Shown here: in pieces, positions 4,500-38,023 of the stretch
Layout of the letters: each line of letters starts with the position of its first letter
How positions within the stretch are numbered: position 1 is the stretch's first letter
From: Dehalococcoidia bacterium
GTDB lineage: Bacteria; Chloroflexota; Dehalococcoidia; Lucifugimonadales; Australimonadaceae
Assembly: GCA_965261385.1 (NCBI GenBank)
Contig: CBDHDB010000001.1
Coordinates: 1,205,418-1,269,417, forward strand
DNA: 64,000 nucleotides
Direction of reading: 5' to 3'
Translations under genes and position numbers: made by a program
Notes under the pieces: generated by a model
Seen by the model: only the letters and a program-made list of their open reading frames with translations
Database searches by the model: none
What the model was told of the DNA's origin: nothing

Positions 4500-4561
4500 G
4501 CGCCCCTGTTGGACGCCCAAAACCCTATTCTCCGCAATGGGCGCAAGAGGGAGGATTTCCG

Positions 4562-5065: not shown

Positions 5066-5097
5066 CTGACGGCAAGTGGACCAGGGAGGACTGACCA

Positions 5098-6873: not shown

Positions 6874-7003
6874 GCCAAGCCCCCTCCCACCCCCGCGAAA
6901 GGGGGACCCTAGCCCTCCCTCTCACAGACGGGGGGCTGGGGCGCATCCCCTCCCCCGGTCTACGGGGGAGGGCTAGGGAAAGGGAGAGCTTGAGGAGCGC
7001 GGG

Positions 7004-7972
7004 ATGCAGAAGTACATAGCGCGGCGGGTGCTGCTCTTCATCCCGACGCTCCTGCTCGCGAGTATCCTCATCTTCGGGATCCTCCGAGTCTTGCCCGGAG
7101 ACGTCGCCCTCGCCATCCTCGGACAAGAGGCCGTCGAGAGCGGCGGCGGCTACACCGAGACGCAGATCAGGGAGCTCCGCGCCGAGCTGGGTCTGAACGA
7201 CCCCCTGCCTCTTCAGTACGCCAAATGGGCCTGGTCGATGGTGAACGGCGAGTTCGGCGGAGAGTCGATCCGCTCCACCGAGCCGCTTTCGGAAATCATC
7301 GCGCGCCGCCTGCCGGTGACGTTGCAGCTCACCGTGTACACGATGGTGCTGTCCATGCTTGTGGCGCTCCCCCTTGGGATATTCTCCGCCTTATACCAGG
7401 ATAAGTGGCCGGACTACGTCCTCCGCATGGGGGCCATCTTGGGGCAATCGATGCCCAACTTCTGGATTGCGCTTCTCCTGCTGCTCTTCATGGTCACGCA
7501 GATCGGCTGGTCCCCGCCCCTGGGCTACGTGAATGTTTGGGAGAATCCGTTCCACCACTTCCAGCTCATGATTTGGCCCGCTCTGATTCTCGCCTGGCGC
7601 TTCAGCGCCTACGTCACCCGCATCACCCGCTCCGGCATGCTCGAAGTGTTGGCCCAGGACTACGTCAGGACGGCGAAGGCGAAAGGGCTGAGCCAGCAGC
7701 TGGTCGTGCGGCGCCATAGCCTGCCCAACGTGCTGATTCCCGTTATCACGTTGGGGGGCTTGGAGGTCGGCACCCTGCTCGGCGGCACGGTGATCTTGGA
7801 GAACCTGTTCGGCATCCCCGGCGTCGGTCAAGCTATCGTAGAAGCCGCCGTCGGAAGGGACTTCCCCGTGGTGCAGAGCCTGGCGATGATGCTCGTCTTT
7901 TTCATGCTCGCGCTCAACCTCGTGGTGGATATCGCTTACTCTTACGTCGACCCGCGCGTACGGTACGCGTAG
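7004..7972 (+). CDS. Peptide/nickel ABC transporter permease (DppB/OppB-like)
   Basis: DYVRTAKAKGL EAA loop, ends DPRVRY. Confidence 0.92.
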   Translation: MQKYIARRVLLFIPTLLLASILIFGILRVLPGDVALAILGQEAVESGGGYTETQIRELRAELGLNDPLPLQYAKWAWSMVNGEFGGESIRSTEPLSEIIARRLPVTLQLTVYTMVLSMLVALPLGIFSALYQDKWPDYVLRMGAILGQSMPNFWIALLLLLFMVTQIGWSPPLGYVNVWENPFHHFQLMIWPALILAWRFSAYVTRITRSGMLEVLAQDYVRTAKAKGLSQQLVVRRHSLPNVLIPVITLGGLEVGTLLGGTVILENLFGIPGVGQAIVEAAVGRDFPVVQSLAMMLVFFMLALNLVVDIAYSYVDPRVRYA

Positions 7973-19536: not shown

Positions 19537-20529
19537 TCAGCCTCCATTCACGATCGAGAGGATGACTGCCGCAAGCTTGTCGGGGTCGTGGCGCGTGCCC
19601 CACGATGGGTCCAGGAGGTCGGCGATTACGGGAGTGACGCCGGCTTCCTCCAAGGACGCCTCCGGCGGGACCGCTTGCTGGTGAAACTGGGGCGCAATCT
19701 CGACCAGCGTCTCGTTCATCACGAAATGGGTGGGCGCGACGCCCGCGTGGCGCTTCAAGGCCGCCAAGTGATCGGCGGCGCCCAAGCCGTCGGTCTCCAT
19801 GTGCTGGGTCGCGACGTTGCAGATGAATATCTTGGGGCAGCCGGCCTCGCGGACGGCTTCCGCCAGACCCCCGATGAGGAGGTTCGGCAGGATGCTGGTG
19901 TAGAGGCTCCCCGGGCCGATAAGAACCGCGTCCGCCGCGCGAATCGCGTCGATGGCCGCGGGGTTAGCGGCAACGTCGTCCGGGGTCAGACGGAGCGCTG
20001 CGATGCGCTCGCCCGCCTGGCCCACGGCGGACTCGCCGTCGAGCAGCCGGCCGGACTCCGTTTCAGCTTCGAGCGTGATCCCGGCCTGCAGCGACGACGG
20101 AATGACGCGCCCCCGGACCGACAACAGCTCGTGAGCGGCGTCGAGGGCCTCGCCGAAGCCGCCCTCGGAAGTGACCATCGCCGACAGCAGAAGATTGCCC
20201 AGGTTATGGCCTTCGAGTCCTTCGCCCTCGTCGAACCGGAACGAGAAGACGCGCTCCATAAGGGGCTCGGCGTCCGAGAGCGCGATCAAGCATTTCCGGG
20301 CGTCGCCGAGGGGAGGCACGCCGAGCATCTCCCGCAGACGGCCTGTGCTTCCTCCGTCGTCGGCGGGAGTGATGATCGCGCTGAGATTGTCCGTCCGGCG
20401 CTTCAGACCTCTCAGCAGGATGGGCAACCCTGTCCCGCCGCCGATGGCCACGAGATGCGGCCCCCCGCTGCCCTGCCGACGGAAGGCCGGATTCTCTGTC
20501 TGACGTAGGTGCGTGTTCATAGGCGACAC
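19537..20529 (-). CDS. yvcK: YvcK/GlmR family gluconeogenesis factor (CofD-like)
   Basis: IGGGTGL, DDGGSTG, GHNLGNL, GPGSLYTSILPNL, RHDP. Confidence 0.9.
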   Translation of the reverse strand: MSPMNTHLRQTENPAFRRQGSGGPHLVAIGGGTGLPILLRGLKRRTDNLSAIITPADDGGSTGRLREMLGVPPLGDARKCLIALSDAEPLMERVFSFRFDEGEGLEGHNLGNLLLSAMVTSEGGFGEALDAAHELLSVRGRVIPSSLQAGITLEAETESGRLLDGESAVGQAGERIAALRLTPDDVAANPAAIDAIRAADAVLIGPGSLYTSILPNLLIGGLAEAVREAGCPKIFICNVATQHMETDGLGAADHLAALKRHAGVAPTHFVMNETLVEIAPQFHQQAVPPEASLEEAGVTPVIADLLDPSWGTRHDPDKLAAVILSIVNGG

Positions 20530-20677: not shown

Positions 20678-20754
20678 GGGCGGTTAGCTCAGTTGGTTAG
20701 AGCGCTTGCTTCACACGCAAGAGGTCACAGGTTCAAGTCCTGTATCGCCCACCA
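20678..20754 (+). tRNA. tRNA-Val (CAC)
   Basis: GGGCGGT/ATCGCCC acceptor stem, CTTGC-TTCACAC-GCAAG anticodon arm, GGTTCAAGTCC T-arm, CCA end. Confidence 0.96.
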
Positions 20755-20762
20755 TCTCGAGT

Positions 20763-20848
20763 GCCGAGGTGGCGGAACGGCAGACGCGCTGTGTTCAGGG
20801 CGCAGTGTCCTTACGGGCGTGCGAGTTCAAATCTCGCCCTCGGCACCA
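20763..20848 (+). tRNA. tRNA-Leu (CAG)
   Basis: GCCGAGG/CCTCGGC acceptor, CTGTG-TTCAGGG-CGCAG anticodon arm, long variable arm, CCA end. Confidence 0.96.
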
Positions 20849-20897
20849 ATAGAGATGACGATGAACGCCGGTCTCGCGCCGGCGGACGGTGAGAGTA

Positions 20898-20975
20898 GCG
20901 CTAGTAGCTCAGTCTGGATAGAGCGCATCCCTGCGGAGGATGAGGTCGTGGGTTCGAGTCCCACCTAGCGCGCCA
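20898..20975 (+). tRNA. tRNA-Arg (GCG)
   Basis: GCGCTAG/CTAGCGC acceptor, CATCC-CTGCGGA-GGATG anticodon arm, GGTTCGAGTCCC, CCA end. Confidence 0.94.
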
Positions 20976-21075: not shown

Positions 21076-21564
21076 ATGAATAGCGAAGCGCCCCAGGGGC
21101 GCCGCTACCTCCCGTGGATGCTCGCGCTGGCCGGTCTGTTCTCCTTGCGAGTGGAGGCCCAACTAGTCCAGGCGGCGTACGAGGTCCCGTCTCTCCCTCC
21201 GTTCGAGGCATGGCAGGGTTCCGGATTGCCCTACCCAGCGCTTCTGGCTTCGCAGGCGGGCATTCTCGTCGTAATGGCCGTTGTCCTTGTGCGAGTCAAA
21301 GCGGATGCGATCGCTCCCCGTCCGTGGAAGCACCGGACGTGCTTCGTGCTGGGGGGCGTCTACTTCACCGTCATGGCGTTCCGCCTATTCGCAGGGCTGA
21401 CGCTCCTCACTGAGCACTCGTGGTTCGCCGCGGGCCTCCCCGCCTTCTTCCACGTCGTTCTCGCGACATTCATCCTGACGCTGGGCCACTACGTCTATCG
21501 AAGGGGGACAGAGGAGGCAGCCTCCTCCCTGAGACAGGCGGCTTCAGGGGCGCGGCGTGACTGA
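21076..21564 (+). CDS. Hypothetical four-TM membrane protein
   Basis: Four hydrophobic segments; stop overlaps the next start. Confidence 0.75.
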   Translation: MNSEAPQGRRYLPWMLALAGLFSLRVEAQLVQAAYEVPSLPPFEAWQGSGLPYPALLASQAGILVVMAVVLVRVKADAIAPRPWKHRTCFVLGGVYFTVMAFRLFAGLTLLTEHSWFAAGLPAFFHVVLATFILTLGHYVYRRGTEEAASSLRQAASGARRD

Positions 21565-22447
21565 GGCGAAGGCGGACCTTTCGCGCCTGGCAGTCGCCGG
21601 CTCGTACCCGGCAATCATCGCGCTGGGCGCCGCGCTCTACGCTGCATTTGCCGCAGTGGGATGGCCCGCGACACTCGCCTCCTACGCCCCGGTGCTGGTC
21701 GGCGCGGCCCTCATCACGCTGCACGAGCTCAAGCTGCCCTATCGCGCGACGTGGCGGCCCCCCGCGGAGGATGTCCGCGCCGACGCGCTGTTCCTGGCTA
21801 CGGTGCAGGTTGGTCTTCCGTATCTCCTGTCTCTCAGCCTGGTCATCGCGCTGGCCGGAGCCCTGGAAGCCAACAGTCTCACCGTGAACGGCTTCTGGCC
21901 TCACGACCTTCCTGTCGTGGCGCAAGCCGCATTGATGCTGTTGGGGGCCGATCTCCTGCGGTACTGGCTCCATCGAGCGTTCCACCGCTTCACGCTCATG
22001 TGGCGGCTGCACGCGGTGCATCACTCGCCGGCCCAGCTGTACTGGTTCAACGTAGGACGGTTCCACCCTATCGAGAAAGCGATTCAGTACGCCGTCGACA
22101 CGTTGCCCTTCGCGCTCATGGGCGTTTCGCACGAGGTGCTCGCGGCGTATTTCGTCTTCTACGCGCTCAACGGGTTCTTCCAGCATTCGAACTGCCGGGT
22201 GAGGCTCGGCCCGCTGAACTACATCGTCAGCGGCCCCGAGCTGCACCGGTGGCATCACTCGCGGATCGTGCAGGAGTCGGACAGCAACTTCGGGAACAAC
22301 CTCATCGTGTGGGACATACTGTTCGGCACGCGGTTCCTCCCGAAGGGCCGCGACGTCGGGCCCCTCGGTCTTCTCAACCCCGAGTACCCAAAAGGATTCT
22401 TCGCACAGATGAGGACTCCATTCATACGAGGACTGGAGAATGGCTAG
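21557..22447 (+). CDS. Sterol desaturase / fatty acid hydroxylase family protein
   Basis: His boxes YWLHRAFH, LHAVHHS, FHPIE, FQHSN, LHRWHHS; WDILFGT. Confidence 0.9.
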   Translation: MTEAKADLSRLAVAGSYPAIIALGAALYAAFAAVGWPATLASYAPVLVGAALITLHELKLPYRATWRPPAEDVRADALFLATVQVGLPYLLSLSLVIALAGALEANSLTVNGFWPHDLPVVAQAALMLLGADLLRYWLHRAFHRFTLMWRLHAVHHSPAQLYWFNVGRFHPIEKAIQYAVDTLPFALMGVSHEVLAAYFVFYALNGFFQHSNCRVRLGPLNYIVSGPELHRWHHSRIVQESDSNFGNNLIVWDILFGTRFLPKGRDVGPLGLLNPEYPKGFFAQMRTPFIRGLENG

Positions 22448-24116
22448 CAACGCCTTGGGTCACATCGCACACGCCGCCGGCTATGCCCTGCTGCGAAAGG
22501 GCCTCAGCCTGATGCAGTCTCGGCGGACACGGGCGTTCGTGGAAGGAGCGAAGCGCCCCCGCGACGCCCAGCTATCCCTATTGCGCCGCATCCTGTCGGA
22601 GAATACCGATACGGAGTTCGGCAAGCGCCACGGGTTCTCGCGAGTCGACGGAGCGGCTGCATACCGCCATGCGGTCCCCCTGCAGACGTACGAAGATCTA
22701 CGCCCCCTGATCGAGCGGCAGGAGCTGACGGGAGAGCAATGCCTCACCATGGAGCCGCCGGTGTACTACCACCGCACGAGTGGGACAGTGGGGGCGCCGA
22801 AGAATATACCGGTCACGGCGTCCGGCCTGAAACGGATGAAGCACGACCAGCAGATGGGGGCCTACGTTTGGTCCCGAGACTCAGCAATCCTCGAAGGAAA
22901 AGCGTTCGCGATCAGCGGCCAAGCCGTCGAAGGCCGGATGGAAGGCGGCACGCCGTTCGGCTCCGCGTCGGGGGTGCTCTATAAGACCCAGTCGCGGTTC
23001 GTGCGGTCGAAGTACGTCCTGCCCGCTGAGCTTGCGGACATCGAAGACTACGAGGCGCGCTACCTTGCGATGGTGGTCCACGGGCTCGCGGAGTCCGGAG
23101 TCAGCGGCATCGCCACCGCCAACCCCTCAACGTTCCTCCGCCTGCTGTCGGTCGCGGACCAGAACGCCGACGTCGTCCTTGGGGCCATCGCGTCGGGACG
23201 ATTGCCGGGCGCGGGCGCGCTGCCCGCGGTCATGGGGCGAGGACTGAAGGCCCGTCCTCAGCGCGCCGCGTACCTAGCGGACCGCCTCAAAGCGGCGGGA
23301 CGCTTCACCTACACTGACATCTGGCCGGACCTCAAGGGAGTGGTGACGTGGACAGGCGGCAGCTGCGGGACCGCTCTGCACGGCCTGTCGGGCCTGCTGC
23401 CGGCGGATATCCCCATCATCGAAGTGGGCTACCTGGCCAGCGAGTTCCGGGGAACGCTCAATATCGACGCCCGCAACAACGTATGCCTGCCCACCCTCTT
23501 CCAAACCTACTTTGAGTTTGCCGAGAGGAGCGCCTGGGAAGCGGGGAGCGCGGAGTTCCTCGGCCTCCACGAGCTCGACGAGGGCGGCGAGTACTACGTG
23601 TTCGTCACCACGCTCGATGGCCTCTACCGGTACGACATGAACGACATCGTCCGCGTCAGCGGAAGAGTGCATGAGACGCCCACCCTCGACTTCGTCCAGA
23701 AGGGCAAAGGGACCACCAACATCACGGGGGAGAAGCTGACCGAAGCGCAAGTGCTCGACGCAGCCCCCGCCGCTCTGTCGAGACGGGACGCGCGGCAGCA
23801 GTTCTTCATCGTCATCGCCGACGAGAACGCCGCACGCTATACGCTATTTGTCGAAGCCGACGGACACGGCGACGGCGGCGCCATCGCCGACGAGGTCGAC
23901 GCGCGGCTGTGCGAGCTGAACGTGGAGTACGAGGCCAAGCGGAAGAGCGGCCGGCTCAAGCCATTGGACGTCCGCTGGCTCCGGCGCGGAGCGGGCGAAC
24001 AGTATCGCGCCAGTTGCGTGGCGGACGGCCAGCGAGACGCTCAGTTCAAGTACCTGCACTTGCAGTACGCCCGTGAGTGCAAGCTCGATTTCGCCGGCCT
24101 GGTAGAGGCGGGGTAA
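22440..24116 (+). CDS. GH3 family acyl-acid amido synthetase (adenylate-forming)
   Basis: TSGTVGAPKNIP, YLASE, GLYRYDMNDIV, GEKLTE and the N-terminal TEFGKRHGF motif of GH3 proteins. Confidence 0.88.
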   Translation: MASNALGHIAHAAGYALLRKGLSLMQSRRTRAFVEGAKRPRDAQLSLLRRILSENTDTEFGKRHGFSRVDGAAAYRHAVPLQTYEDLRPLIERQELTGEQCLTMEPPVYYHRTSGTVGAPKNIPVTASGLKRMKHDQQMGAYVWSRDSAILEGKAFAISGQAVEGRMEGGTPFGSASGVLYKTQSRFVRSKYVLPAELADIEDYEARYLAMVVHGLAESGVSGIATANPSTFLRLLSVADQNADVVLGAIASGRLPGAGALPAVMGRGLKARPQRAAYLADRLKAAGRFTYTDIWPDLKGVVTWTGGSCGTALHGLSGLLPADIPIIEVGYLASEFRGTLNIDARNNVCLPTLFQTYFEFAERSAWEAGSAEFLGLHELDEGGEYYVFVTTLDGLYRYDMNDIVRVSGRVHETPTLDFVQKGKGTTNITGEKLTEAQVLDAAPAALSRRDARQQFFIVIADENAARYTLFVEADGHGDGGAIADEVDARLCELNVEYEAKRKSGRLKPLDVRWLRRGAGEQYRASCVADGQRDAQFKYLHLQYARECKLDFAGLVEAG

Positions 24117-24121
24117 GAGAT

Positions 24122-25255
24122 TTGCGTATCCAACGGCTGGAGGTCACGAGCTTCCCCGTCCCCTTCCGGGCCGTCTTCCGCCACGCATCCGCCAGCCGCG
24201 CCAAGGCGGAGAACCTCATCGTCGCGGCCCATTCGGAGTCCGGCGAGGCGGGGTACGGCGAGGGGTGCCCCCGCAGCTACGTGACCGGGGAGACGGTGGA
24301 GAGCGGCGCCGCATTCATTCGGCAGCACGCAGCTTCGATTGCCGACAGCGTGACCGACGCCCAAAGCTTGCGGGGGTGGGCCGACGCCCACCGCGAAGTC
24401 ATCGACCGGAACCCTGCAGCGTTCTGCGCAATCGAAATCGCAGTGCTCGATCTGCTGGGAAAGGCGGAGCTCAGACCCATCGAGGAGGTCCTGGGCCTGC
24501 CGCGGCTGACTGGCCGGTTCCCCTACTCCGCGGTGTTGGGGGACGCGCCGCACCTGGCCTATTGGTGGCAGCTCCGGCGCTACTGGAAGCGGGGCTTTCG
24601 GGACTTCAAGGTGAAGGTGTCGGGCAACCTCACGCGCGACCAACGGAAGATACGCCTGTTCGAGAAAAAAACCGACCCGGAGCTGCGGGTGCGGTTCGAC
24701 GCGAACAACCTGTGGGAGTCAGCGGACGAGTGCATCCGTCACGTGAACGCGCTTCCTTATGCGGTCTACGCAATCGAGGAGCCGCTGCGGGAAGGGGACT
24801 TGGCCGGGTTCGAGCGCGTGGGCGTGGAGTGCGGAACAAAAATCATCCTCGACGAGAGCCTGCTGCGCGCCGAACAGCTCGATAGGCTGAACGACCCGGA
24901 CCGGTGGATCGTGAACGTGCGAGTCTCGAAGATGGGCGGCCTCATCCGGTCGCTGGAAGTGACCCAGCGGGCTGCCGAGCTTGGGCTTGGCGTAATCGTC
25001 GGCGCCCAGGTCGGAGAGACGAGCATCCTCACTCGCGCGGGCCTGACGGTGATGCATGCAGCACGTCCGAATCTCGTGGCGTCAGAGGGCGCGTTCGGCA
25101 CGCACTTGCTCAAACGGGACCTCACGTCGGAAAGTCTGATGTTCGGCGACGATGGGGCGATCGTCGCCGAGCGGGAGGACGTCGGCGCGGCGCCGGGGTT
25201 GGGACTGGAGGTACGCAGAGGGGATCTCGTCCCGCTGCGCTTTTCTTCGTCATGA
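24122..25255 (+). CDS. Enolase superfamily enzyme (MLE subgroup; dipeptide epimerase/racemase-like)
   Basis: GYGEGCPRSYVTGET, KVK, metal ligands in DANN / EEPL / DESL, SKMGG; TTG start 5 nt after the GH3 stop is the likely start. Confidence 0.85.
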   Translation: MRIQRLEVTSFPVPFRAVFRHASASRAKAENLIVAAHSESGEAGYGEGCPRSYVTGETVESGAAFIRQHAASIADSVTDAQSLRGWADAHREVIDRNPAAFCAIEIAVLDLLGKAELRPIEEVLGLPRLTGRFPYSAVLGDAPHLAYWWQLRRYWKRGFRDFKVKVSGNLTRDQRKIRLFEKKTDPELRVRFDANNLWESADECIRHVNALPYAVYAIEEPLREGDLAGFERVGVECGTKIILDESLLRAEQLDRLNDPDRWIVNVRVSKMGGLIRSLEVTQRAAELGLGVIVGAQVGETSILTRAGLTVMHAARPNLVASEGAFGTHLLKRDLTSESLMFGDDGAIVAEREDVGAAPGLGLEVRRGDLVPLRFSSS

Positions 25256-25293: not shown

Positions 25294-25932
25294 TCAGCCC
25301 CCGAGAACGACTCGCACGATCTGGCGCTCCAAGCGGCCGCCCAGCTCGACGGCCAAGTCGAGGTAGGTCTTGTCCACCTTCGCCACCGCAGTCGCGACGC
25401 CGATTACGCGGCCCACCTGGAACTCGACAATCGTCGAGACCAGCTCGCCGCCGGGGACTTCGCGGAGGACGAGCAGACCGGCGGAGTGGCCGTGGAAACC
25501 CGACGGCTTCAGCACCTCGACGCCGGTGATCTTGCGGTCCATGGCATCCGTCTCGCCCACGCTCTTCCTCAGACGAGCGACGAAAGTCTCGTCGATCCAC
25601 GCTTGCGCGTCCTCGGGGCGCTGGAACAGGTGAACGGCCGTCGACGCCTCCAGAAGCTCCGACGGCTCCTCGGCGAGGGTCGAGCCGCCCTGCGGGACGA
25701 TGAACCCGACCTCGTAGCCGTTGAGCCGATTCGCCTCGGTCAGCGACTCGACGGTGTCCGGGCCGTCGGCGCGCTTGGCGAAGGTCTCGTTATCGAGGTC
25801 CTCCTCGCGCAGCGACTCGAACCCCGCCAGCTCGTCGGGCAGCTGAGACTTGTCCAGCGCCATGAAGCGCAAATCGCCTGATGTGACGCCGAGCGTCAGC
25901 TGTGAGAGTCGGTCTTGGGTAGCTTCAGTCAT
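25294..25932 (-). CDS. Hypothetical protein
   Basis: Protein-like acidic ORF with AAGGAG RBS before the ATG at 25932. Confidence 0.7.
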   Translation of the reverse strand: MTEATQDRLSQLTLGVTSGDLRFMALDKSQLPDELAGFESLREEDLDNETFAKRADGPDTVESLTEANRLNGYEVGFIVPQGGSTLAEEPSELLEASTAVHLFQRPEDAQAWIDETFVARLRKSVGETDAMDRKITGVEVLKPSGFHGHSAGLLVLREVPGGELVSTIVEFQVGRVIGVATAVAKVDKTYLDLAVELGGRLERQIVRVVLGG

Positions 25933-26010
25933 GGCGCGGCGCTCCTTGGCCGTCAAGGTTACGCTGGCGCGGCGGCTGTGACCACTAGCCTCGCCTGCGG
26001 GCGCTTCCCA

Positions 26011-27144
26011 TTACCTGGCCAAGTCGAACAAAGCGGCGGCATTCTCGCGGAGAATCTTGCGCCGGGTTTCGGCGGGGAGGTGGGCCGTCTCTCGCGTGAC
26101 AACCTCGTCCGAGTAAGGCCAAGTGCCGTCGGCGTGGGGGAAGTCGGAAGCCCACATCATGTGGCCGTCGCCGAAGAAGTCGACGAGATGTAGGCCGACC
26201 TCGTCGGCCTGATAGGTGGCCCAGACCTGGCGCTTGAATACGTCGCTTGGGCGCTCTTTCAGGTCGGAATGTTGGCCGGCGCCCTCCGCCTTCTTCAGGC
26301 GATAGTCCATCTCTTGGACCACGTAGGGGATCCATCCCGTGCCGGACTCGGCGAGGACGACCCGCAAGCCTGGACGGCGTTCCAAGACCCCCAGCGAGAA
26401 GAGGTTGACGAAAGGCTCCAGAAAGGCAGTGCCCGCGTTCCCGAGGCCAAGGTCGAAGGCGGGGACGCGGGCCGTTCCGGCTAGGGCCGTCCGGCGCGCC
26501 CGCATCGAGCCGGTCTGAAGACTGCCGCCGACGTGATAGGCCACGACCATGCCCGTCTCCTCGGCGACGTCCCAGAAGCGGTCCCACGGCTCCATGCACA
26601 TGTCGACCGTGACATCGTTGACCAGAAAGCACACTTCTCGCAGCCGGCCCCTTTTCGCCACCCGCACGAGCTCGTCAGTAGCGGCTATGGGGTCGACGGG
26701 CGAGAGGGCGGCGGCGGGGAGGAAGCGTTTCGGCGCCGCGTCCGCGAATTCGGTGGCCCAGTCGTTGTACGCGCTGACGCAGAAGTTCCTCAGTTCGGCG
26801 TTTTCGATGTGCAGCTCGATGATCGGGGGATACATCAAGGAGGCCTCAATGCCGTCGCGGTCCATGTCTTCGATGCGCTTTGCGGGAGTCGTCGGACGGC
26901 CGGGCTCGGCAAACCCGATGCGGTCGAGCGCCGATTTATTGCGCTTAGGGTTCGCGAAGTAACGCTCGCCCCTGAAGTCGCCCCACGAGAAGCCGTCGCA
27001 CACCCAGAGCTCGCCGTCGTCGCCCCGGTCTTCGACGTGGGGGGCGCGCGCGCGGAGCGCCTTGGGGACGCGGTCGAGCCAGAGGTCCTTAGGCAAGTAT
27101 CCGAGGTCGATGTGGTCGTCGGCCGATATCTTGAGATAGTCCAT
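26011..27144 (-). CDS. Amidohydrolase family protein (amidohydro_2)
   Basis: ISADDH, DMDRDGI, AYNDW, ESGTGW, WASDFPH, ENAAALF; GGAGG RBS. Confidence 0.88.
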   Translation of the reverse strand: MDYLKISADDHIDLGYLPKDLWLDRVPKALRARAPHVEDRGDDGELWVCDGFSWGDFRGERYFANPKRNKSALDRIGFAEPGRPTTPAKRIEDMDRDGIEASLMYPPIIELHIENAELRNFCVSAYNDWATEFADAAPKRFLPAAALSPVDPIAATDELVRVAKRGRLREVCFLVNDVTVDMCMEPWDRFWDVAEETGMVVAYHVGGSLQTGSMRARRTALAGTARVPAFDLGLGNAGTAFLEPFVNLFSLGVLERRPGLRVVLAESGTGWIPYVVQEMDYRLKKAEGAGQHSDLKERPSDVFKRQVWATYQADEVGLHLVDFFGDGHMMWASDFPHADGTWPYSDEVVTRETAHLPAETRRKILRENAAALFDLAR

Positions 27145-27301
27145 GGTTGGCCCTCCCGTCGGCGGCTGCACTGAGGGGCAGCCCCAACTCCGGCAAGCTA
27201 CTCCCACGCCCAAGGCGGGGTCAACAAAATCGCGTTCCGCCGGGCGTGTTGTTGTATCGTTGCCTCGATCCGGCAGGGGCGCCGGACAGCAGGAGGCGCG
27301 G

Positions 27302-28600
27302 ATGTTCAGTATCGAGGACAACACGAGGCTGACGGCGACCGCTCGGGGCACGGAGATGGGGAACCTCCTTCGCCGCTTCTGGACGCCGTTCCTTCTATCC
27401 GACGAGCTGCCGAGACCCGATTGCCCCCCGGTGCGGGTCCGGCTGATGGGCGAGAGCCTCGTCGCGTTCCGCGACAGCGCGGGGCGCATCGGGCTGCTGG
27501 CCGAGCGGTGCCCCCACCGCCGCGCCAGCCTCTACTTCGGGCGAAACGAGGAGTGGGGCCTGCGCTGCATCTACCACGGCTGGAAGTTCGACATCGAGGG
27601 GCAGTGTGTCGACATGCCGTCCGAGCCCGCAACGTCCAACTACAAGGAGAAGGTGCGCCAGCCCGCGTATCCGACGGCGGAGCGGGGCGGCGTTGTCTGG
27701 GCGTACCTAGGGCCGTCGGACGCCACGCCGGAGCTGCCGGGATTCGCCTGGCTCGACCTTCCGCCCTCCCACGTGCACGTGACGAAGCGGTTGGAGCGCA
27801 CGAGCTGGGTGCAGGGACTGGAAGGCGGAGTCGACTCGGCCCACTCCAACTTCTTGCATGCCTCCGTGGACTCATTCCGGCGCACGCCGGCCTGGCTGGA
27901 ACGCGCTCAAAACGCGCCGAACCTGCGCTCCCGGTACCACGCCCTGGACCGGTCTCCCGTCTTCGTCGCGGAAGACACGGACTACGGAGTCCGAGTAGGA
28001 GCGCGGCGCGACATCGGCGAGGGCAAGTACTACTGGCGGTTCACCCACTGGCTGATGCCGTTCTACAACCTTTTCAGGCAGGGCGCGCTGCAGCCCGGCA
28101 ACAACAGCCAGGGCATCGCCTGGACGCCCATCGACGACAACAGCTGCTGGACCATCGTCGCGACCTGGAACGAGGAACGGTCGCTGTCGGGCGAGGACAT
28201 CGAGTCCGCCGAGGACTTCGCGGGCCCCGCGCTCCCGGGCACGTTCCTGCCGGTCCGCAACATCGACAACGAGTACCTCATCGACCGCGAGGTCCAGCAG
28301 TCCTCGACCTTCACAGGCATCGCGGGCGTTCAGGCCCAAGACATGGCCGTGCAAGAGAGCATGGGCCCGATAGTCGACCGCCACGAGGAGCACCTCGGCA
28401 CGAGCGACACAGCGATCATCGCGATGCGGCGGAGGCTGCTACGGCAAGCGCGCGCCTTAGCAGACGGCGCCGAACCCATCGCGGCGCGCGATCCGTCGGT
28501 GTACCGGGTGCGCTTCGCGGAGGCCTTAGTGGACCAGGACGAAGAGCTAACCCACACCGCGCGTGAGGAGCTTTGCTCCTCAACGGCGAGGGAACCCTAA
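27302..28600 (+). CDS. Rieske non-heme iron oxygenase alpha subunit (LigXa/phthalate type)
   Basis: CPHRRA...CIYHGW; EGGVDSAHSNFLH; QDMAVQESMG; AGGAGG RBS. Confidence 0.92.
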   Translation: MFSIEDNTRLTATARGTEMGNLLRRFWTPFLLSDELPRPDCPPVRVRLMGESLVAFRDSAGRIGLLAERCPHRRASLYFGRNEEWGLRCIYHGWKFDIEGQCVDMPSEPATSNYKEKVRQPAYPTAERGGVVWAYLGPSDATPELPGFAWLDLPPSHVHVTKRLERTSWVQGLEGGVDSAHSNFLHASVDSFRRTPAWLERAQNAPNLRSRYHALDRSPVFVAEDTDYGVRVGARRDIGEGKYYWRFTHWLMPFYNLFRQGALQPGNNSQGIAWTPIDDNSCWTIVATWNEERSLSGEDIESAEDFAGPALPGTFLPVRNIDNEYLIDREVQQSSTFTGIAGVQAQDMAVQESMGPIVDRHEEHLGTSDTAIIAMRRRLLRQARALADGAEPIAARDPSVYRVRFAEALVDQDEELTHTAREELCSSTAREP

Positions 28601-28619
28601 CAACCAAGGAGCACTGAAG

Positions 28620-29378
28620 ATGCCCAGACTCACAATAGCCGACTTGCAGCAGATGAAGAACGAGGGCAAGAAGATTGCGGCGGGCGTGTGCTACGACGTT
28701 CAGATGACGCGCATATGGGAGCGCGCCGGAGTCGACCTCCTCTCGGTGGGAGACAGCGTGAGCCGCACGTTCCTCGGCATGGAGAACGAGGACGAGTTCA
28801 CGATCGACGCGATGCTCCTGTTCGGCAAGGCGGTCAGCCGGGTGGCGGAGCGGGCCGCGGTGAACGTCGATATGCCGACGGCGACGTGCAACGCCGGACC
28901 CAAGGCGGTCGAGGCGGCGGCCCGCCGGATCAAAGAGGAAACGGGCGCGGACATGACCAAGGTGGACATCCGCACCCAGGAGGAGACGCTGTTCGACGAC
29001 GTGCTGGCGGTGATCGAGACGGGCTTGCCGGTCTACCCCCAGATTGGGTTCGACGTCTGGGAGCCCCGACACGAGGACGCAGCGGCGCACGACCACGTGA
29101 TGAAGTGGTGCAGCGCCGTGCAGGACGCCGGGGCCGTGATGATCGACCTCACCAACGTGAGCAACGAGATATACGCCGACGTGGCGAAGGCGATGCGCGT
29201 CCCGGTCATCGGCGGGCAGACGGGGCCGGAGGCGGCCGGCCGCATCTACGTGAGCTACGCGCTCACCGGCTACCGGGCCGACTCCATCGATCGGACCGAC
29301 GGGGCCCCGAGCGCGGCCAAGTACATCTACGACATCGCCAGCCAGGCGGTCGCGAACGTCCACGCGGGGGCCTGGTAG
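28620..29378 (+). CDS. Divergent PanB-like (ketopantoate hydroxymethyltransferase family) protein
   Basis: K...KI...YD, LLSVGDS, VDMP and VPVIG retained; the usual KLEGG and GHIGL motifs are replaced by KVDIR and PQIGF. Confidence 0.75.
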   Translation: MPRLTIADLQQMKNEGKKIAAGVCYDVQMTRIWERAGVDLLSVGDSVSRTFLGMENEDEFTIDAMLLFGKAVSRVAERAAVNVDMPTATCNAGPKAVEAAARRIKEETGADMTKVDIRTQEETLFDDVLAVIETGLPVYPQIGFDVWEPRHEDAAAHDHVMKWCSAVQDAGAVMIDLTNVSNEIYADVAKAMRVPVIGGQTGPEAAGRIYVSYALTGYRADSIDRTDGAPSAAKYIYDIASQAVANVHAGAW

Positions 29379-29558
29379 GGCCGCTCCGGGCTACGTCCGT
29401 CGTGTGCGAGGTTCCCGCCTGCCTGGGATTTGACGGGAGGGGGCACGGGACATGACCGCGCTGTGCCCCGCACGCCTTCGTTCTGGAGTACCATGCGACG
29501 GTTAGGGGACGCCGCTGCCCTGCGGGCGTCCCGGACCACTTGATAGGAGAGCGGCTGG

Positions 29559-30590
29559 ATGATTATCGATTCCCATGGGCACTACACCACGGCCCCAGCC
29601 GGGGTGCAGATTTTTCGAGCTACGCAAATCACCTTCATGGGAGCTCCGGTCAAGCACCCTGTGAACGTCACCGACGACCAGATACGAGCATCGCTGGAGA
29701 ACGGGCAGCTCAAACTGCAGAACGAGCGCGGCACGGAGGTGGCGCTCTTCTCCCCGCGCGCCTCATGGATGGGGCACCACTTCGGCGGCGAGCTCATCAG
29801 CCGCTTCTGGACCGAAATCAACAACGACCTCATCAGGCGTGTCTGCGACATCTATCCCGACCGCTTCATCCCCGTCGCGTCGCTGCCGCAGTCGCCCGGC
29901 GTGCCTCCGGAGCGAGGCGTCGTGCAGGAGCTGGAACGGGTCGTGAACGAGATGGGGTTCGTCGGATGCAACCTCAACCCCGACCCCTCCGGCGGCTGGT
30001 GGACGGACCCGCCGTTGGGCGACCGGTACTGGTACCCGCTCTACGAGAAGATGGTCGAGCTGGACGTGCCCGCGATGATTCACGGCTCCGGCACGTGCAA
30101 CCCCGCGTTCACGACAACCGGCTCCCACTACATGAACATAGACAACACCGGCTTCGTGCAGCTGCTAGAGTCGGACGTGTACCGGGACTTCCCCGGCATC
30201 AAGTTCATCATGCCCCACGGCGGCGGCGCCATCCCCTACCAATACGCCCGCTTCAAGGGCCTCAGCATCATGGCCAACCGCGAGCCGTTCGACGAGTTCC
30301 TTGGCCGCATGTTCTTCGACACCGCCATCTACAGCCAGGCGGCGGTCGAGTACCTGATTAAGACGGTGGGCGTCGACAACGTGCTGTTCGCGTCGGAGAT
30401 GATCGGCGGCGTGCAGGCCGTCGACCCCGACTCCGGACGGCAGTACGACGACACCAAGCCCTACATCGACGGCATCGATTGGCTGTCGGACGAGGACCGC
30501 AAGAAGCTGTTTGAGGACAACGTGCAACGGGCGTACCCTCGGATGAAGCCCTACATCGAGAAGATTGCGAAGGCCCAAGGGGAGAACTGA
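29559..30590 (+). CDS. ligJ: 4-oxalomesaconate hydratase-like amidohydrolase
   Basis: MIIDSHGHYTTAP, SPRAS.MGHH, LPQSPGV, NLNPDPSGG, PHGGGAIPY, FASEMIG, DDTKPYI. Confidence 0.8.
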   Translation: MIIDSHGHYTTAPAGVQIFRATQITFMGAPVKHPVNVTDDQIRASLENGQLKLQNERGTEVALFSPRASWMGHHFGGELISRFWTEINNDLIRRVCDIYPDRFIPVASLPQSPGVPPERGVVQELERVVNEMGFVGCNLNPDPSGGWWTDPPLGDRYWYPLYEKMVELDVPAMIHGSGTCNPAFTTTGSHYMNIDNTGFVQLLESDVYRDFPGIKFIMPHGGGAIPYQYARFKGLSIMANREPFDEFLGRMFFDTAIYSQAAVEYLIKTVGVDNVLFASEMIGGVQAVDPDSGRQYDDTKPYIDGIDWLSDEDRKKLFEDNVQRAYPRMKPYIEKIAKAQGEN

Positions 30591-33038: not shown

Positions 33039-34520
33039 TTGCATAGTAGGCGTCTTTCTTGTGGTAAGGACGGGGATGCCTTACTGCGACGACGTGTGCG
33101 AGGAGGGCTAGCCCCTTTCTTCGCGATCCTGCTCGTCGCCCTAGCCGCGTGCGCCTCACCTACGCCTACTGCCACCCCGACGGCGACGCCGACTCCAACG
33201 TCCGCTCCGACGGCATCGCCCATCCCCATCCCGACGCTCACAGCAATGCCCACCGCGAGGCCGCCGTTGGACGCGCGAGCGGTCATGCTTCAGCAGACGG
33301 CGGACCGCGTGCGGGCCTAGATAATCACGGCTGTAGACGCCGGTTGCGCGTTCACGTACGAGGAGGCGACTTACCGCAGCAGCGGGTTCCGCACGCTCGA
33401 GGACGGCGATGTCGTGGACAGGCCGATGGGCCAAGTCACCACCACAGTCATAGAGCGCGGCTCCGATGGAAGGATCGGAGTGATTGGCCAATCTTCGAGG
33501 AGCGGCCTCGGCGGCGCGAGCCCGATGGGCGGCTCCTTCAGCGGCGACCTCGATTTTGCGTCGTGGACTGGCGACCAGCTCGATAGCCTAGCGGACATCC
33601 TCACCCGAGGCGCCTACGCGGGCGAATCGTCGTTCAGGGGCAAACCAAGTCTGCGCTACGAGTCGCGCATGGAGCGTGGGCCTTCGCAGGACGCGGCGGC
33701 GCCCGTGGCGGCGCGGTCCGTATACGACTACCTCATCGACAACCCCTTTGTCCGTATCGAGAGCCAGTACGACGTTTTCCCCGACGGCAGGGTCGAGCTG
33801 GTGCGGCAGTGGGCGATGAGCGAGTTCGGAGTTGGAAGCTGCCCCAGCGATGGGCCGGACGAGGCGCGGCAGGAGCTCGAGCGGGTTGCGGTGGAATCGT
33901 ACGCTGCGCTCCTAGAAAGCATCGAGTCGGCTCAGTGCGGCATCTTCTTCGATACAGAGCAATTCCGCAGGGAAGGGTATCGGAGGGAAGGAGAGGCGCT
34001 TCCGACAACAACGATGAGCCGAATGACGTTCGAGCGGCACGGCGAAGGCCGCTGGCTGCTGCACGGCAGCTCCGAGCAGACCTCCAACGGAAAGCTCATC
34101 CTGCGCAGCAGGACGAAGGCATGGCATGCCGAGACCTTCGATCCGTCCATCGGCGAATGGCGGGCAATGGAGCCCCAGCTGCCGGAATTCGCCTTCGGCC
34201 CGAACGAGACTGCCAAGTTGTATGCCATCGACGTTGGCGGCCTGGTGGCCAACGAGGAAGAGTACAACATCCTCACGGCGTCCCCCGACGGGATAGAGGG
34301 CTACGAGTACGCGGGCGAGACGACAGTGCAAGGGCGTCCTGCCGAGCGGTACGAGAAGAGGGAGCTGGACGTAAAAGAGGAAGGCATCGCTGATCTCCTC
34401 CAGGTCAGGGAGTACGTGAAGGACAACCCGCTCCTCTTCACCCTCCGCACCCACGCCATCCTCCCCGAAGGCGAGCTCCGGCTCGAAGACGAACTCATGC
34501 TGGCGGGCATTGGGCATTGA
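33039..34520 (+). pseudogene. Lipoprotein with PT linker and two internal repeat domains, split by an in-frame TAG at 33318-33320
   Basis: LAAC lipobox; the ORF at 33414 is in the same frame as 33039; the halves share YAGE..xG.P..RYE and NP motifs. Start codon uncertain. Confidence 0.65.
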
Positions 34521-34547
34521 GGAGTGCGGGGGGTAGGAGCACTTCCC

Positions 34548-34676
34548 CTACCCCGGAAACATGGTGATGGGCTGTTCGATGGCAGGGTTATAGCGCTGGT
34601 GGCCTTAGCGGATCATGCGGGCTTGGTTGCGGTCGGGGGTGTGGTAGACGCTTTCCTGCGTCATCATGATGCACTC
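34548..34676 (-). repeat. Decayed duplicate of the last 43 codons of the Rieske gene at 36776
   Basis: Gapless alignment to 36776-36904; reads ECIMMTQESVYHTPDRNQARMIR*GHQRYNPAIEQPITMFPG*. Confidence 0.9.
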
Positions 34677-34892
34677 CTCTCACGCAGACGGGAGAGGGGA
34701 GTGGTTGTGCCTGTCCCGCAGGCGGGAGATGGAGTGTAGCGGCGAGGCTTCGAATCTGTGATGGAGCGTCGAAAGGAGTGAGACCGCCAACGGCGCAGGG
34801 CGGGCCACAACGAAGCCGCGGTGGGCCAAATGAGCGTAATGAGGCCACCATAGACGGGGGCGTTCGCGTATTGCCCAGTGGGAACGCAGGAA

Positions 34893-36635
34893 CTATTTCC
34901 TCCAAATGCTGGGGGCGCGCTCAGCCATTTCGCATTGACGCTCCTCAATACGGGTAACGTCCCATTCAGTAAGATCGCCAAGCCTCTTTGTCAATTCCAG
35001 AACTTGGTCGTTGTAGTATTCCTTCTTCACAGAGAATTGCTTGTCTTTCCCTTTGCGGTTCTTGCTAAGGTTGAGAAGGGCTTGGTTGCCTAGCATGTTG
35101 CAATAGCTCTTCAGTTTCAAACCTAAAGTGTCCCTCTGGACCACCATGCTCGGAATATCGTAGCCCATGGCCTCGATCCATTCCCGAGCATTCTTGGTAA
35201 TAGTCCTCCGGTTGATCAATTTGGAAGCAACTGAAATAGGGAAAATGTGCTCCCTATCGACTTCATAGGGCAGTACGCCCGATCCATTACTTGATATCGG
35301 ATCTAGCTTTCTTAGTAAGTGCCTTGTCGTATTGGAGGACTCAATTTCCGCCCTCTTGAACAAATCAATAAACTCTCCGTCAGGCACCATGAGGTCACGT
35401 ATCTCATCAAATGCATCTTGAACTTTGTTCCTCCTTGACAGCTGTGCCCAGTACGGCCAGCTCTTCTCGTAGGCATTAGGGCGTTTGTTGCCAATCGTAA
35501 TATTGCGTATTTGTAGGGAGAGGGTTAGTTGAACCGCTTCGTCAAATCGCGCGTGTGCATGGGTATGAACCATTGTCAAGAAGGCATTCGACTAGACATT
35601 CAATTGATTAAGGTCTCTAATGTCTTGAGATAATCGTGAGTTTCCTTGAGGACGCACTACTGAGAGGTAATTCTTTATGTAATTCCCTACATCTTCAATG
35701 ACACGCTCTACCTCTCCAGTGCCTTGATCCTTTACGACCCTATCTACAGCCTTGTCCAGGCTACGCTTTGTAGTGTACCCGTGCCTAGAGGACCATACCG
35801 TGTGCAGATAGTTATCCATGGCGTCTATTGGGAGCCCAGCTTGCTCAAGATCATTCGCTGCCGAGTTCCATCTCTTGATAAGCTCTTCCGATAACCTAGT
35901 ATCCTCTCTCGCAACCGCTGCTAGGCGCGCCTTGATTGCCTCCGCAGGAGATAGGCGAAGCCCTCTTGTATTAGTAGTATCAAATACTAGGTATGCTTGC
36001 CCTTCTGAAGCAACTTCAATTGGAAGTAATTTCACATTATTTTGAACGTATGCACACAAAGCGCGTAATGCTTCCTTTGAGTTTGGCTCATTTTGAATAT
36101 AGTCTCTGACGAGATTGCTTAGCGTTTTTGCAGCTGACAACACTCGGTCATCTTTTTGCGGATGCAACGAAGATAACTCGGCAGTAGAACCGATTGTATG
36201 CACAATGGAACGATATATCTCGTTGTCAGGTTGCTGCAGAGTCAAGACTAACGCCCCTGTAAGTTGTCCGTCATCGTTGCCTCGCGCAATCAATCGATTA
36301 AGTGTATATGCTCGTTCCTCTAATTCATAATCTTTGCAACAATCTTGTAGGATGGCAAGAAGTATTGATAATGTAGAGATTCGTTGTTGGCCATCAATTA
36401 CTGCTACCTTCCCGCTTTCTTGTGGCTGCAGCAGCAATGTTCCTAGGAAATACCACGGCCATCGCTGTTCATGAGCCTTCAGAATGTCGTCCCAGAGTTG
36501 CCGGACTTCAACTCTCGTCCACTTGAATCGCCTTTGAGGGTGAACTACCTTGAACAAATTGTTATACCCAGCATTCGAAAAAAGGCTGTTCGGAGGGGTT
36601 GCATCTGTTCCTATGTTAATTGCCCGACTGACCAT
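34893..36635 (-). pseudogene. DUF262 + DUF1524 (GmrSD-like type IV restriction) gene split by an in-frame TAG at 35592-35594
   Basis: QRRFKW, IDGQQR, FDTTNTRG in the N-half; EHIFP, LGNQALL..N in the C-half; the ORFs are 12 nt apart in the same frame; visibly AT-rich. Confidence 0.85.
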
Positions 36636-36775
36636 ATTACCTCCTCTGAATTGGGCTTAGAATTAAGCTAAATGTATCACGTCTGACACTTCCCCTGCTA
36701 CAGCCCACGTATCGGACTTGCGGCCGCCTATTCCAGCCTCCGCAGCTTGCTCCCGACCCACGCCTATCCATCCCC

Positions 36776-38023
36776 CTACCCCGGGAACATCCCAATAATC
36801 TCTTCGATGGCCGGGTTGTAGCGCTGGTGGCCGTAGCGGATCATGCGGGCCTGGTTGCGGTCGGGGGTGTAGTAGACGCTCTCCTGGGTCATCATGATGC
36901 ACTCGTTGGCGGCGGGGTCGCGGAAGACGTTCATGGGGTCGCCGCCGTCCGCCACGGTAGCCATCGCCTCGTTGAGCATCCGGCGCAGCTGGATTACGCC
37001 CACGTCGGACTCGCCCAGGCGCTCGTTGGTGCGGTCGGCGATGGGGGTCTGGGTCACCCAGGCCATGAAGTCCTGGACGAGGGGGACCTCCAAGTTGAGC
37101 TCGCCGTCCCGGTAGAGCGGAATCTCGTAGTAGGGGACGACCTGCTGGGGCGGAACGTCGATCTCCGGCGGGAACTGGTAGCGCGTGTAGACGACGTGGA
37201 GCGTGTTGTGGTCGTCGATGGGCACGCGAATCTGGAACTCGGTGCTCGTCGTGCCGGTGGTCGAGCGGAGGATGTTGGGGAACACCCACGGATGGCCGAC
37301 CTTCCAGATGTCGTCGTCCTCGGTGGTCCCCTCGACGATCCGCTTCTTGAAGACGCCGTTCGCGAACTCCCGGAAGCCGATGCGCTGGTGGGGGCGGGCC
37401 ATCGCGCGGCGCCACGACGGGACCTCCTCGCCAGTCTTCTCCGCGAGGTAGAGGCCGTAGACGCCGTGCAGCCATTCCGCGTGGACGGGGTCGGCGGAGT
37501 TCTCCTGGCACTGGAGCCAGTTGCACGGCAGCACGGTGAAGCCGATGTCGCGCCAGGCGTGGTCCGTCACGAAGAGATCCCAGCGGGGCACGAGGGGCGC
37601 GGGCGACGGGCCGAGGTAGGCGAACAGCAGGCCCCCGAGCTCCTCGACGGGGTAGGCGTCGACCTTCACCTTCTCCTTGAAGCGTCCGTCGGGGTGGACG
37701 GTCTCCTCGAAGGGTTGCTCGATGCATTGCCCTGTCTCGTCCATCATCCAGCCGTGGTACATGCAGCGGAGGCCGTGCTCCTCCGGGATGCCGTAGGAGA
37801 GGTCAACGCGGCGATGGGGGCAGAAGCGTTCGATGAGGCCGAGAACGCCGGACTTGTCCTTGTACAGAACGAGGTCCTCGCCGAGGAGGCGGACGGGCTT
37901 GGAGGGCCGCTCATCGAGCTCGGCGGCGGCGGCGATGGGGTGCCAGTAGCGGCGCATGAGCACGCCCATGGGCGTGCCCTTGCCGACCTGGGTGAGCTGC
38001 TCGTTCTCCTGCTGCGTCAGCAT
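36776..38023 (-). CDS. Rieske non-heme iron oxygenase alpha subunit (LigXa/phthalate type)
   Basis: CPHRRV...CMYHGW; ENSADPVHAEWLH; QDFMAWVTQ; GGAGG RBS. Confidence 0.92.
   Translation of the reverse strand: MLTQQENEQLTQVGKGTPMGVLMRRYWHPIAAAAELDERPSKPVRLLGEDLVLYKDKSGVLGLIERFCPHRRVDLSYGIPEEHGLRCMYHGWMMDETGQCIEQPFEETVHPDGRFKEKVKVDAYPVEELGGLLFAYLGPSPAPLVPRWDLFVTDHAWRDIGFTVLPCNWLQCQENSADPVHAEWLHGVYGLYLAEKTGEEVPSWRRAMARPHQRIGFREFANGVFKKRIVEGTTEDDDIWKVGHPWVFPNILRSTTGTTSTEFQIRVPIDDHNTLHVVYTRYQFPPEIDVPPQQVVPYYEIPLYRDGELNLEVPLVQDFMAWVTQTPIADRTNERLGESDVGVIQLRRMLNEAMATVADGGDPMNVFRDPAANECIMMTQESVYYTPDRNQARMIRYGHQRYNPAIEEIIGMFPG

Follow-up and report, generated by a model that had tools for sequence, protein, structure and literature searches.

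What might a small membrane protein, a membrane-bound oxygenase, an amide-forming synthetase and an enolase-like enzyme be making together? The question is raised by positions 21076-25255 of a 64,000-nt stretch of a Dehalococcoidia genome (contig CBDHDB010000001.1; the whole stretch is called the window here), where four ORFs (open reading frames) lie in tandem on the + strand and encode, in order, a small integral membrane protein, a member of the FA_hydroxylase family, a GH3 enzyme and an enolase-superfamily protein of the MLE subgroup. An earlier sequence-only reading took them for a new biosynthetic system. We find that this cassette is a genuine, widespread functional unit, and with a probability of roughly 60% we read it as a membrane-associated pathway to an N-acyl amino acid lipid that carries a hydroxyl group and undergoes a further epimerisation or dehydration.

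Conservation, fusions and spread of the cassette

The compact arrangement described in the sequence-only reading, with four co-oriented genes, two 8-nt overlaps and a 5-nt gap just downstream of a tRNA cluster, was confirmed at each ORF and junction. The GTG start of the hydroxylase gene (21557) lies inside the 3' end of the membrane-protein gene and the ATG of the GH3 gene (22440) inside the 3' end of the hydroxylase gene, and 5 nt separate the GH3 stop codon (TAA, 24114-24116) from a TTG at 24122. This TTG is favoured as the enolase start because most homologues are 366-377 aa long and the alignments to PDB structures begin there; the alternative is a GTG at 24077.

That these genes belong together is evident from a wide scan, made with a GH3 alignment against a single genome of each species, which returned 563 stretches encoding a relative, the best 80 of which were kept. 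Hydroxylase, GH3 and enolase are adjoining, collinear and on one strand in all 80 loci. Counted as ORFs, the hydroxylase and the GH3 are each present in 80/80 and the enolase in 78/80. In L034 a contig end cuts the enolase; L069 and L071 share a record, and L055 and L092 share a bin. The flanks are not conserved in this way: among all ORFs within 7 kb on each side, and apart from the cassette genes and their antisense shadows, the next family occurs in only 20/80 loci. In addition, a search with the enolase against 1.84 billion cluster representatives yielded a protein of 1207 aa (P0288) that carries FA_hydroxylase (115-249), GH3 (315-827) and enolase (996-1205) domains in cassette order, at 48, 44 and 44% identity to the respective window proteins and with His boxes, GH3 P-loop and Arg motif (see below) intact. 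In a further protein, the fragment P0393, GH3 is joined to the enolase. Because the three genes are collinear in 80/80 loci, their flanks are not conserved and the triple fusion exists, chance adjacency is rejected. The co-occurrence that the sequence-only reading had left to a neighbourhood analysis is thus borne out in four phyla.

A more distant architecture shows which parts of the cassette are older. In another genome of the same family (locus L016), the gene of a GH3 of 36% identity is preceded by a 618-aa ORF (6097-7953) that joins a haem-oxygenase-like di-iron oxidase (PF14518) in its N-terminal half to an Arg-type enolase in its C-terminal half, and alpha/beta hydrolases flank this fusion-GH3 pair. 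The oxidase-enolase fusion is common: 591 proteins matched it at E up to 1e-10, and both domains are present in 116 of the best 120 (P0126-P0245). Among 301 sampled Chloroflexota genomes, a relative turned up in six (E up to 1e-60), which together with L016 makes seven remote loci. In all seven the enolase is directly followed by the GH3, which argues that the GH3-enolase pair is the old core. The fused oxidase is present in three of the seven; in another three (L112-L114) no oxygenase adjoins the enolase-GH3 pair and a lysophospholipase-type hydrolase lies upstream instead; cNMP-binding proteins are encoded nearby in each of these, and in L114 a patatin as well. GH3-enolase therefore often has a di-iron oxygenase as its third partner, drawn from one of two unrelated folds. 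Sources name the fusion of ~620 aa in generic terms only, and in every locus examined a GH3 gene comes directly after it.

By record title the 80 loci belong to Chloroflexota (36; Dehalococcoidia, SAR202 and Chloroflexi), Pseudomonadota (38; Gamma- and Alphaproteobacteria), Actinomycetota (3; Acidimicrobiales) and Binatota (3; Binatia), and their GH3 identities range over 53-94%. The nearest named relatives are in Dehalococcoidia metagenome-assembled genomes (MAGs), at 94% identity and with the same synteny. In a FastTree phylogeny of the GH3, which has no proper root and covers the best 80 loci only, the phyla interleave: gammaproteobacterial clades nest inside a Chloroflexota-Actinomycetota clade, and Azotimanducaceae appear in two distant clades. 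Many of the record names suggest sponge symbionts, but a literature search on three of these taxon names found a single sponge paper, in which Azotimanducaceae alone are named, and we claim no habitat on this basis. Closer to the window the distribution is patchy, with the GH3 found in 7/24 other genomes of the family and in 0/16 other families of the order; the six closer family relatives have hydroxylase, GH3 and enolase collinear. Interleaved phyla and patchy distribution together fit repeated horizontal transfer. A search of a plasmid collection recovered only two distant GH3 genes, from Streptomyces, at 26-29% identity.

Some of these loci are worth describing individually. A genome of the same genus (G001) carries a decaying cassette (L012:7570-9700), in which the hydroxylase has lost all its His boxes to an internal deletion of ~480 nt and the GH3 gene has an in-frame TGA, the enolase still being 93% identical. 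One gammaproteobacterial MAG holds two divergent cassettes that fall in different GH3 clades (L055 and L092). An identical cassette at both ends of one Foliamicus chromosome record (L069 and L071) is probably the overlap of a circular assembly.

The four proteins of the cassette

The hydroxylase belongs to the FA_hydroxylase superfamily (PF04116, 106.2 bits against a cut-off of 31, 2e-30), and its sole NCBIfam match is OlsE (NF052566), at 173.5 bits against a cut-off of 475 and over model positions 11-285 (275/293). In 21 hydroxylase sequences the invariant His are H139, H143, H152, H155, H156, H170, H210, H230, H233 and H234, which comprise H170, H210 and those of the boxes HRAFH, HAVHH and HRWHH; in this superfamily such boxes bind the di-iron centre. 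Judged by its sequence, the protein is an integral-membrane di-iron hydroxylase or desaturase that is OlsE-like and not an OlsE equivalog. OlsE of Rhizobium tropici and Agrobacterium hydroxylates C4 of the ornithine head group in ornithine lipids (PMC12971839), and it shares with the window enzyme the di-iron superfamily, a near full-length alignment and intact His boxes. Unlike OlsE, the window hydroxylase has a gene translationally coupled to that of a GH3 and is, in one protein, fused to it. A second OlsE-like gene was not found in the window's own genome, which is 93% complete.

The GH3 protein matches all three domain models of its family (PF03321, PF23571 and PF23572, at 169.9, 63.8 and 49.7 bits, each against a cut-off of 23.6). 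Its nucleotide motifs TSGTxGxPK (T113-K121), GYxxSE (G330-E335) and YRYD (Y396-D399) do not vary among 7 sequences, the most distant of which has 35% identity; the consensus of these motifs in GH3 enzymes is S/T-S-G-T, Y-x-x-S-E and Y-R-x-x-D. By these features the window GH3 is assigned as an acyl-acid amido synthetase, which would adenylate a carboxylic acid and then join it to an amine. Plant GH3s (JAR1, GH3.5/3.6 and GH3.12) have the same three-domain architecture and adenylation motifs, and their structures score 65-77 bits against the window protein, with matches spanning nearly the whole chain. The plant enzymes act on hormones and not on lipids. The window GH3 differs from them also in context, being encoded in a bacterial operon beside a membrane protein, a membrane enzyme and an enolase. 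The sole NCBIfam match is OlsH (NF052613), at 84.3 bits in two stretches against an equivalog cut-off of 620; the GH3s of the remote variants score 104-131 bits against the same model. No second GH3 gene was found in the window's own genome.

OlsH, described in 2025, is a GH3-like ATP-dependent N-acyl-ornithine synthetase that uses a free fatty acid, ATP and Mg2+ and has the same nucleotide-binding motifs (PMC12493201). This was the first demonstration of GH3-dependent aminolipid synthesis, in a single planctomycete, Singulisphaera acidiphila, and its authors predicted other N-acyl amino acids from other bacterial GH3s, with other amino acids expected for homologues outside planctomycetes. In that study OlsH activity was seen in extracts alone and did not show in living E. 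coli. As in the cassette, the bacterial GH3 there sits in an operon with lipid-tailoring genes, and the chemistry likely common to both, by analogy, is the formation of an N-acyl amino acid from fatty acid, ATP and amino acid. The olsH operon also encodes OlsG, a methyltransferase, and OlsI, an O-acyltransferase of alpha/beta-hydrolase type (PMC12493201); both are absent from the cassette, which has an OlsE-like hydroxylase, an enolase and a small membrane protein instead. With part of the chemistry in print since 2025, the statement in the sequence-only reading that bacterial GH3s are largely uncharacterised is weakened. Its companion claim, that no described pathway has this combination, is weakened as well: the OlsH and OlsE chemistry is published, but a search confined to one library of papers returned none with the enolase partner or with the four-gene combination. 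The same search gave no paper linking a haem-oxygenase-like di-iron oxidase with the enolase superfamily and, among the matches listed, nothing relevant on a bacterial GH3 gene cluster with a racemase, and neither of the two OlsH papers mentions an enolase or a racemase. We regard the cassette as a variant of a recently described GH3-dependent aminolipid route, and the enolase clade as its most original element.

The enolase matches MR_MLE_C at 100 bits, with MR_MLE_N also found (Pfam). Its nearest structures are the dipeptide epimerases 3jva, 1jpm (YkfB) and 3rit and the N-succinyl-Arg/Lys racemase 2p88 (by sequence 3jva, 1jpm and 2p88), and an AF2 model (pLDDT 88) gave best fold matches at a TM of ~0.8. 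The KxK motif (K178 and K180), which marks the end of beta2 in the MLE subgroup, and the metal ligands D208, E234 and D259, of beta3-beta5, are invariant in the 80/80 sequences covering those columns and align with the corresponding residues of YkfB and 3jva. These invariant residues, with the His boxes and the GH3 nucleotide motifs, agree with the sequence-only reading that all catalytic motifs are present. That reading had also picked out an Arg in place of the second Lys of the MLE subgroup, and the exchange is real. Positions 24911-24940 translate as VNVRVSKMGG, and Arg282, which aligns with K268 of 1jpm (motif INIK), stands where the second catalytic Lys, on beta6, would be expected. Both R282 and K285 are invariant in 79/79 cassette enolases. 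A wider alignment has Arg at 282 in 27/28 sequences and Gln in one, and the remote GH3-linked enolases have Arg in 7/7. Among the best 150 representatives at 50% identity, Arg is present in 121 and Lys in 15, all of the latter at rank 81 or beyond and at 42% identity or less; the remaining 14 gave no regex match, 10 of them being fragments.

Judged against NCBIfam equivalogs, the enolase falls short by a wide margin of the dipeptide and Ala-Glu epimerases (NF041118, 47 bits against a cut-off of 500; NF011708, 40 against 343), of o-succinylbenzoate synthase (OSBS) and N-succinylamino acid racemase (TIGR01927, 78.8 against 130.55; TIGR01928, 76.4 against 200.65) and of the DgcA N-acetyl-D-Glu racemase (74.7 against 400). 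The sequence-only reading saw no DxD, the motif by which dipeptide epimerases hold the ammonium group of their substrate; HMMER alignments to the epimerase structures end before that stretch. In the window protein an EGAFGTH stretch is conserved, with E322, G323, G326 and T327 invariant and F325 nearly so. The window enolase thus has the KxK and Asp/Glu/Asp ligands of those MLE-subgroup enzymes that act on N-acylated amino acids (3jva, 1jpm, 3rit and 2p88) and differs from them in its invariant beta6 Arg and in missing their equivalog models. In the loci examined its clade always adjoins a GH3, and it is sometimes fused to the GH3, to the hydroxylase or to the di-iron oxidase. The nearest Lys-type relatives include enolases fused to a Hydrolase_4 alpha/beta-hydrolase domain (P0327 and P0384).

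Known MLE-type racemases require both lysines, and in OSBS and muconate cycloisomerase the beta2 Lys is the sole acid/base. With Arg in place of the Lys on the opposite face, a one-base outcome is slightly favoured over two-base epimerisation, and the D-amino acid product considered in the sequence-only reading loses ground, since of the two lysines that serve such racemases as acid and base one is here invariably Arg. It is tempting to go further and to regard the GH3-linked Arg-beta6 enolases as a new MLE functional family with a one-base reaction (for example the beta-elimination of an oxygenated N-acyl amino acid to an N-acyl dehydroamino acid), working in a membrane-tethered oxygenase/GH3/enolase assembly with an interchangeable oxygenase, carried by horizontal transfer to marine bacteria, many of them host-associated, in four phyla or more, and yielding an undescribed class of lipoamino acids. 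We put this forward tentatively, as a possibility more apt to fail than to hold in full. The clade itself is large, with at least 121 clusters (50% identity, best 150 representatives), and its exchange of Lys for Arg and its pairing with GH3 in the loci examined suggest uncatalogued chemistry in the superfamily.

The small membrane protein is the least conserved member. It has four long helices (AF2 model, pLDDT 92), and neither it nor 20 homologues gave a Pfam match even at E up to 1 or belong to an NCBIfam family; a protein atlas search returned 'hypothetical' clusters only, and comparison with PDB folds gave nothing significant (Foldseek best E 0.5, to LTC4 synthase; VIA-align best Z 6.8, which is noise level for helical bundles). 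R25, Q32, Y96, R103 and H126 are invariant in 21 sequences. Homologues occur in 58/80 loci, just 5' of the hydroxylase, just 3' of the enolase or up to ~4.5 kb upstream. In the loci that lack one, no other small multi-helix ORF adjoins the cassette, with a few multi-helix ORFs elsewhere in L058 and L064; of five genomes with such loci, one has the gene elsewhere and none was seen in the other four. The protein is an accessory member of the cassette. A homologue of 34% identity is also encoded directly 3' of the GH3 in one of the remote clusters that have the fused oxidase (L111:11651-12007, - strand), by which the accessory protein is common to both architectures. Complex prediction with the hydroxylase scored 0.00 in two runs without controls and has no bearing either way. 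Identity as a di-haem cytochrome was considered and ruled out, only 1/4 His being conserved.

A candidate route to N-acyl amino acid lipids

We hypothesize that the cassette is a self-contained, horizontally shared unit acting at the membrane to make a modified N-acyl amino acid, that is, a lipoamino acid or lyso-aminolipid. From the gene order, families, conservation, fusions and Arg substitution observed above, we infer the substrates, the order of the steps and the reaction of the enolase as follows. The GH3 would first adenylate a free fatty acid with ATP and attach it to an amino acid at the alpha-amino position, in the manner of OlsH with ornithine; our first guess is that the amino acid is a basic one, for example ornithine or lysine. 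The OlsE-like di-iron membrane enzyme would then hydroxylate (or desaturate) the lipid, most likely in its head group. The Arg-type enolase would next bind the free carboxylate through Mg2+ and use a KxK lysine to take the C-alpha proton, for example in a beta-elimination of the hydroxyl that leaves an N-acyl dehydroamino acid. The small membrane protein, finally, would be a dispensable helper.

Several observations converge on this proposal. The nearest enolase structures act at the C-terminal residue of an N-acylated amino acid, and their type of substrate is therefore what the GH3 product would offer. A lipid at the membrane is suggested because the hydroxylase is an integral membrane protein to which the triple fusion tethers GH3 and enolase, and because lysophospholipase-type alpha/beta hydrolases and a patatin adjoin enolase-GH3 in remote variants. 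A search of the window's own genome (93% complete) for the N-acyltransferase domain of OlsB (PF13444) gave 0 matches, and thus no sign of a competing route of N-acylation. The oxidised N-acyl amino acid lipid or signal proposed in the sequence-only reading is, with the OlsH and OlsE precedents, the tethering and the fusions, the best supported of the candidate products considered. If so, the cassette is a concrete, widespread and testable candidate for the GH3-made N-acyl amino acids foreseen in the OlsH work, in which the triple fusion shows that the enzymes cooperate. That di-iron oxygenases of two unrelated kinds recur beside GH3 and enolase suggests a modular logic of oxygenation, ligation and C-alpha activation, from which uncultured marine bacteria could obtain new lipids with a surfactant-like or signalling function.

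As to which amino acid is used, an importer offers a hint. In 8-9 gammaproteobacterial loci a PotABCD-like ATP-binding cassette (ABC) importer lies inside the cassette, its ATPase scoring 362 bits as a member of the PotA subfamily against a cut-off of 355.6. These are Foliamicus-type loci (L072, L073, L088, L092-L094 and relatives), where an SBP_bac_8 binding protein, two permeases resembling PotB and PotC and a PotA-type ATPase are encoded at ~1600-6070 of each locus, flanked by the genes of the small membrane protein and the hydroxylase and on the same strand as these. Together with the ornithine precedents (OlsH and OlsE) and the Arg- and Lys-specific structural neighbours 2p88 and 3rit (an L-Arg-D-Lys epimerase), the importer points weakly to a basic amino acid.

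It is important to note that a number of points weigh against this pathway. The hydroxylase scores 173 against 475 on the OlsE model, by which another substrate or regiochemistry is possible, and C4 hydroxylation of the OlsE type would not set up a beta-elimination. The GH3 is as distant from OlsH as from the auxin, jasmonate and benzoate GH3s of plants, and its acid substrate may accordingly be something other than a fatty acid. A polyamine transporter would suggest amines without a carboxylate, which the enolase could not use. No OlsI- or OlsA-like O-acyltransferase is conserved with the cassette in the 80 loci, which gives no support to a membrane lipid with two tails. Since no oxygenase adjoins the pair in three of the remote loci (L112-L114), the enolase step cannot depend on hydroxylation everywhere. 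The triple fusion is one database prediction, and none of the 24 runs listed for the 4.2-kb stretch is an RNA run.

The alternative that survives best is that the product is a soluble amide and no lipid, such as a signal, a siderophore-like compound or another small natural product, with the GH3 conjugating an aromatic or short acid and the oxygenase and enolase tailoring it. The near-equal scores of the GH3 against plant structures (65-77 bits) and OlsH (84 bits) would suit such a product, as would a LigB-type ring-cleavage dioxygenase adjoining the variant cluster in L016 and the soluble nature of the haem-oxygenase-like oxidase in the fused variant. Most oxidases of this kind have free amino acids or fatty acids as substrates. 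Against this, the window oxygenase is an integral membrane protein whose sole curated relative is a lipid head-group hydroxylase, the fusion holds GH3 and enolase to it, a membrane protein accompanies the enzymes in 58/80 loci, and hydrolases of the lipase type occur with the remote variants. On this balance we consider a soluble amide unlikely.

Should the cassette instead be a true OlsH-type ornithine-lipid pathway, its product would be an ornithine membrane lipid with two tails and a hydroxyl group, and the enolase would be an addition to that route. The best curated matches of GH3 and hydroxylase are indeed OlsH and OlsE, an OlsB-type gene was not found in the window's own genome, and OlsH homologues are reported from several proteobacterial orders (PMC12971839). 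However, the scores lie far under the equivalog cut-offs (84 of 620 and 173 of 475), and neither an OlsI-like hydrolase nor any other O-acyltransferase is conserved in the 80 loci; alpha/beta hydrolases do flank the remote variants. The patchy occurrence (7/24 genomes of the family and 0/16 other families), with one copy decaying, does not suggest a core membrane lipid, and we regard this pathway as improbable. Least probable of all is a catabolic or detoxifying role, in which organic acids that are recalcitrant or of complex chirality would be broken down or altered by enolase and hydroxylase, with the GH3 conjugating or activating the acid: it draws on the two Amidohydro_2 genes, the Rieske/LigXa-like oxygenase and the ketopantoate-hydroxymethyltransferase-like gene in the window flanks and on the catabolic roles proposed for SAR202 enolase paralogue expansions (PMC6946804), but those flanks are not conserved with the cassette, the expansions described there are of the mandelate-racemase subgroup and not MLE, known GH3 enzymes consume ATP to form amides, and in the four phyla that share the cassette its neighbours are unrelated.

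Coordinates and surroundings of the locus

Table 1. Features of the cassette and its upstream tRNA cluster, in window positions.
Feature	Position	Strand	Remarks
Small integral membrane protein gene	21076-21564	+	162 aa; no Pfam/NCBIfam family
FA_hydroxylase-family gene (OlsE-like)	21557-22447	+	296 aa; PF04116
GH3 gene	22440-24116	+	558 aa; GH3 N, M and C domains
Enolase-superfamily gene, MLE subgroup	24122-25255 (TTG) or 24077-25255 (GTG)	+	377 / 392 aa; MR_MLE_N + MR_MLE_C
Arg282 codon of enolase (Arg267 from TTG start)	24920-24922	+	site of second catalytic Lys in MLE-subgroup enzymes
tRNA-Val(CAC), tRNA-Leu(CAG), tRNA-Arg(GCG) cluster	20678-20975	+	ARAGORN; upstream context, outside pathway

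The cassette has a G+C content of ~65%, the same as its surroundings, and the next ORF on its 3' side (25294-25956) is on the opposite strand and convergent with it. A scan for promoters and terminators gave nothing above shuffled expectation. The same three tRNAs precede the cassette in 3/7 family relatives (L010, L012 and L013) and are not found there in L011, L014, L015 and L016. On the 5' side of the tRNA cluster lie, both on the - strand, genes for a tyrosine-recombinase integrase of phage type (17261-18421) and for a CofD-family 2-phospho-L-lactate transferase (19537-20529). After the cassette, positions 26011-30590 hold a run of catabolic type, comprising an Amidohydro_2 gene on the - strand, the Rieske/LigXa-like oxygenase, the ketopantoate-hydroxymethyltransferase-like gene and a second Amidohydro_2 gene; ORFs like these are present in up to 19/80 loci. 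Further downstream, the G+C content falls to 0.54-0.59 at 34001-38000, against ~0.65 elsewhere, and this part of the window may be foreign DNA.

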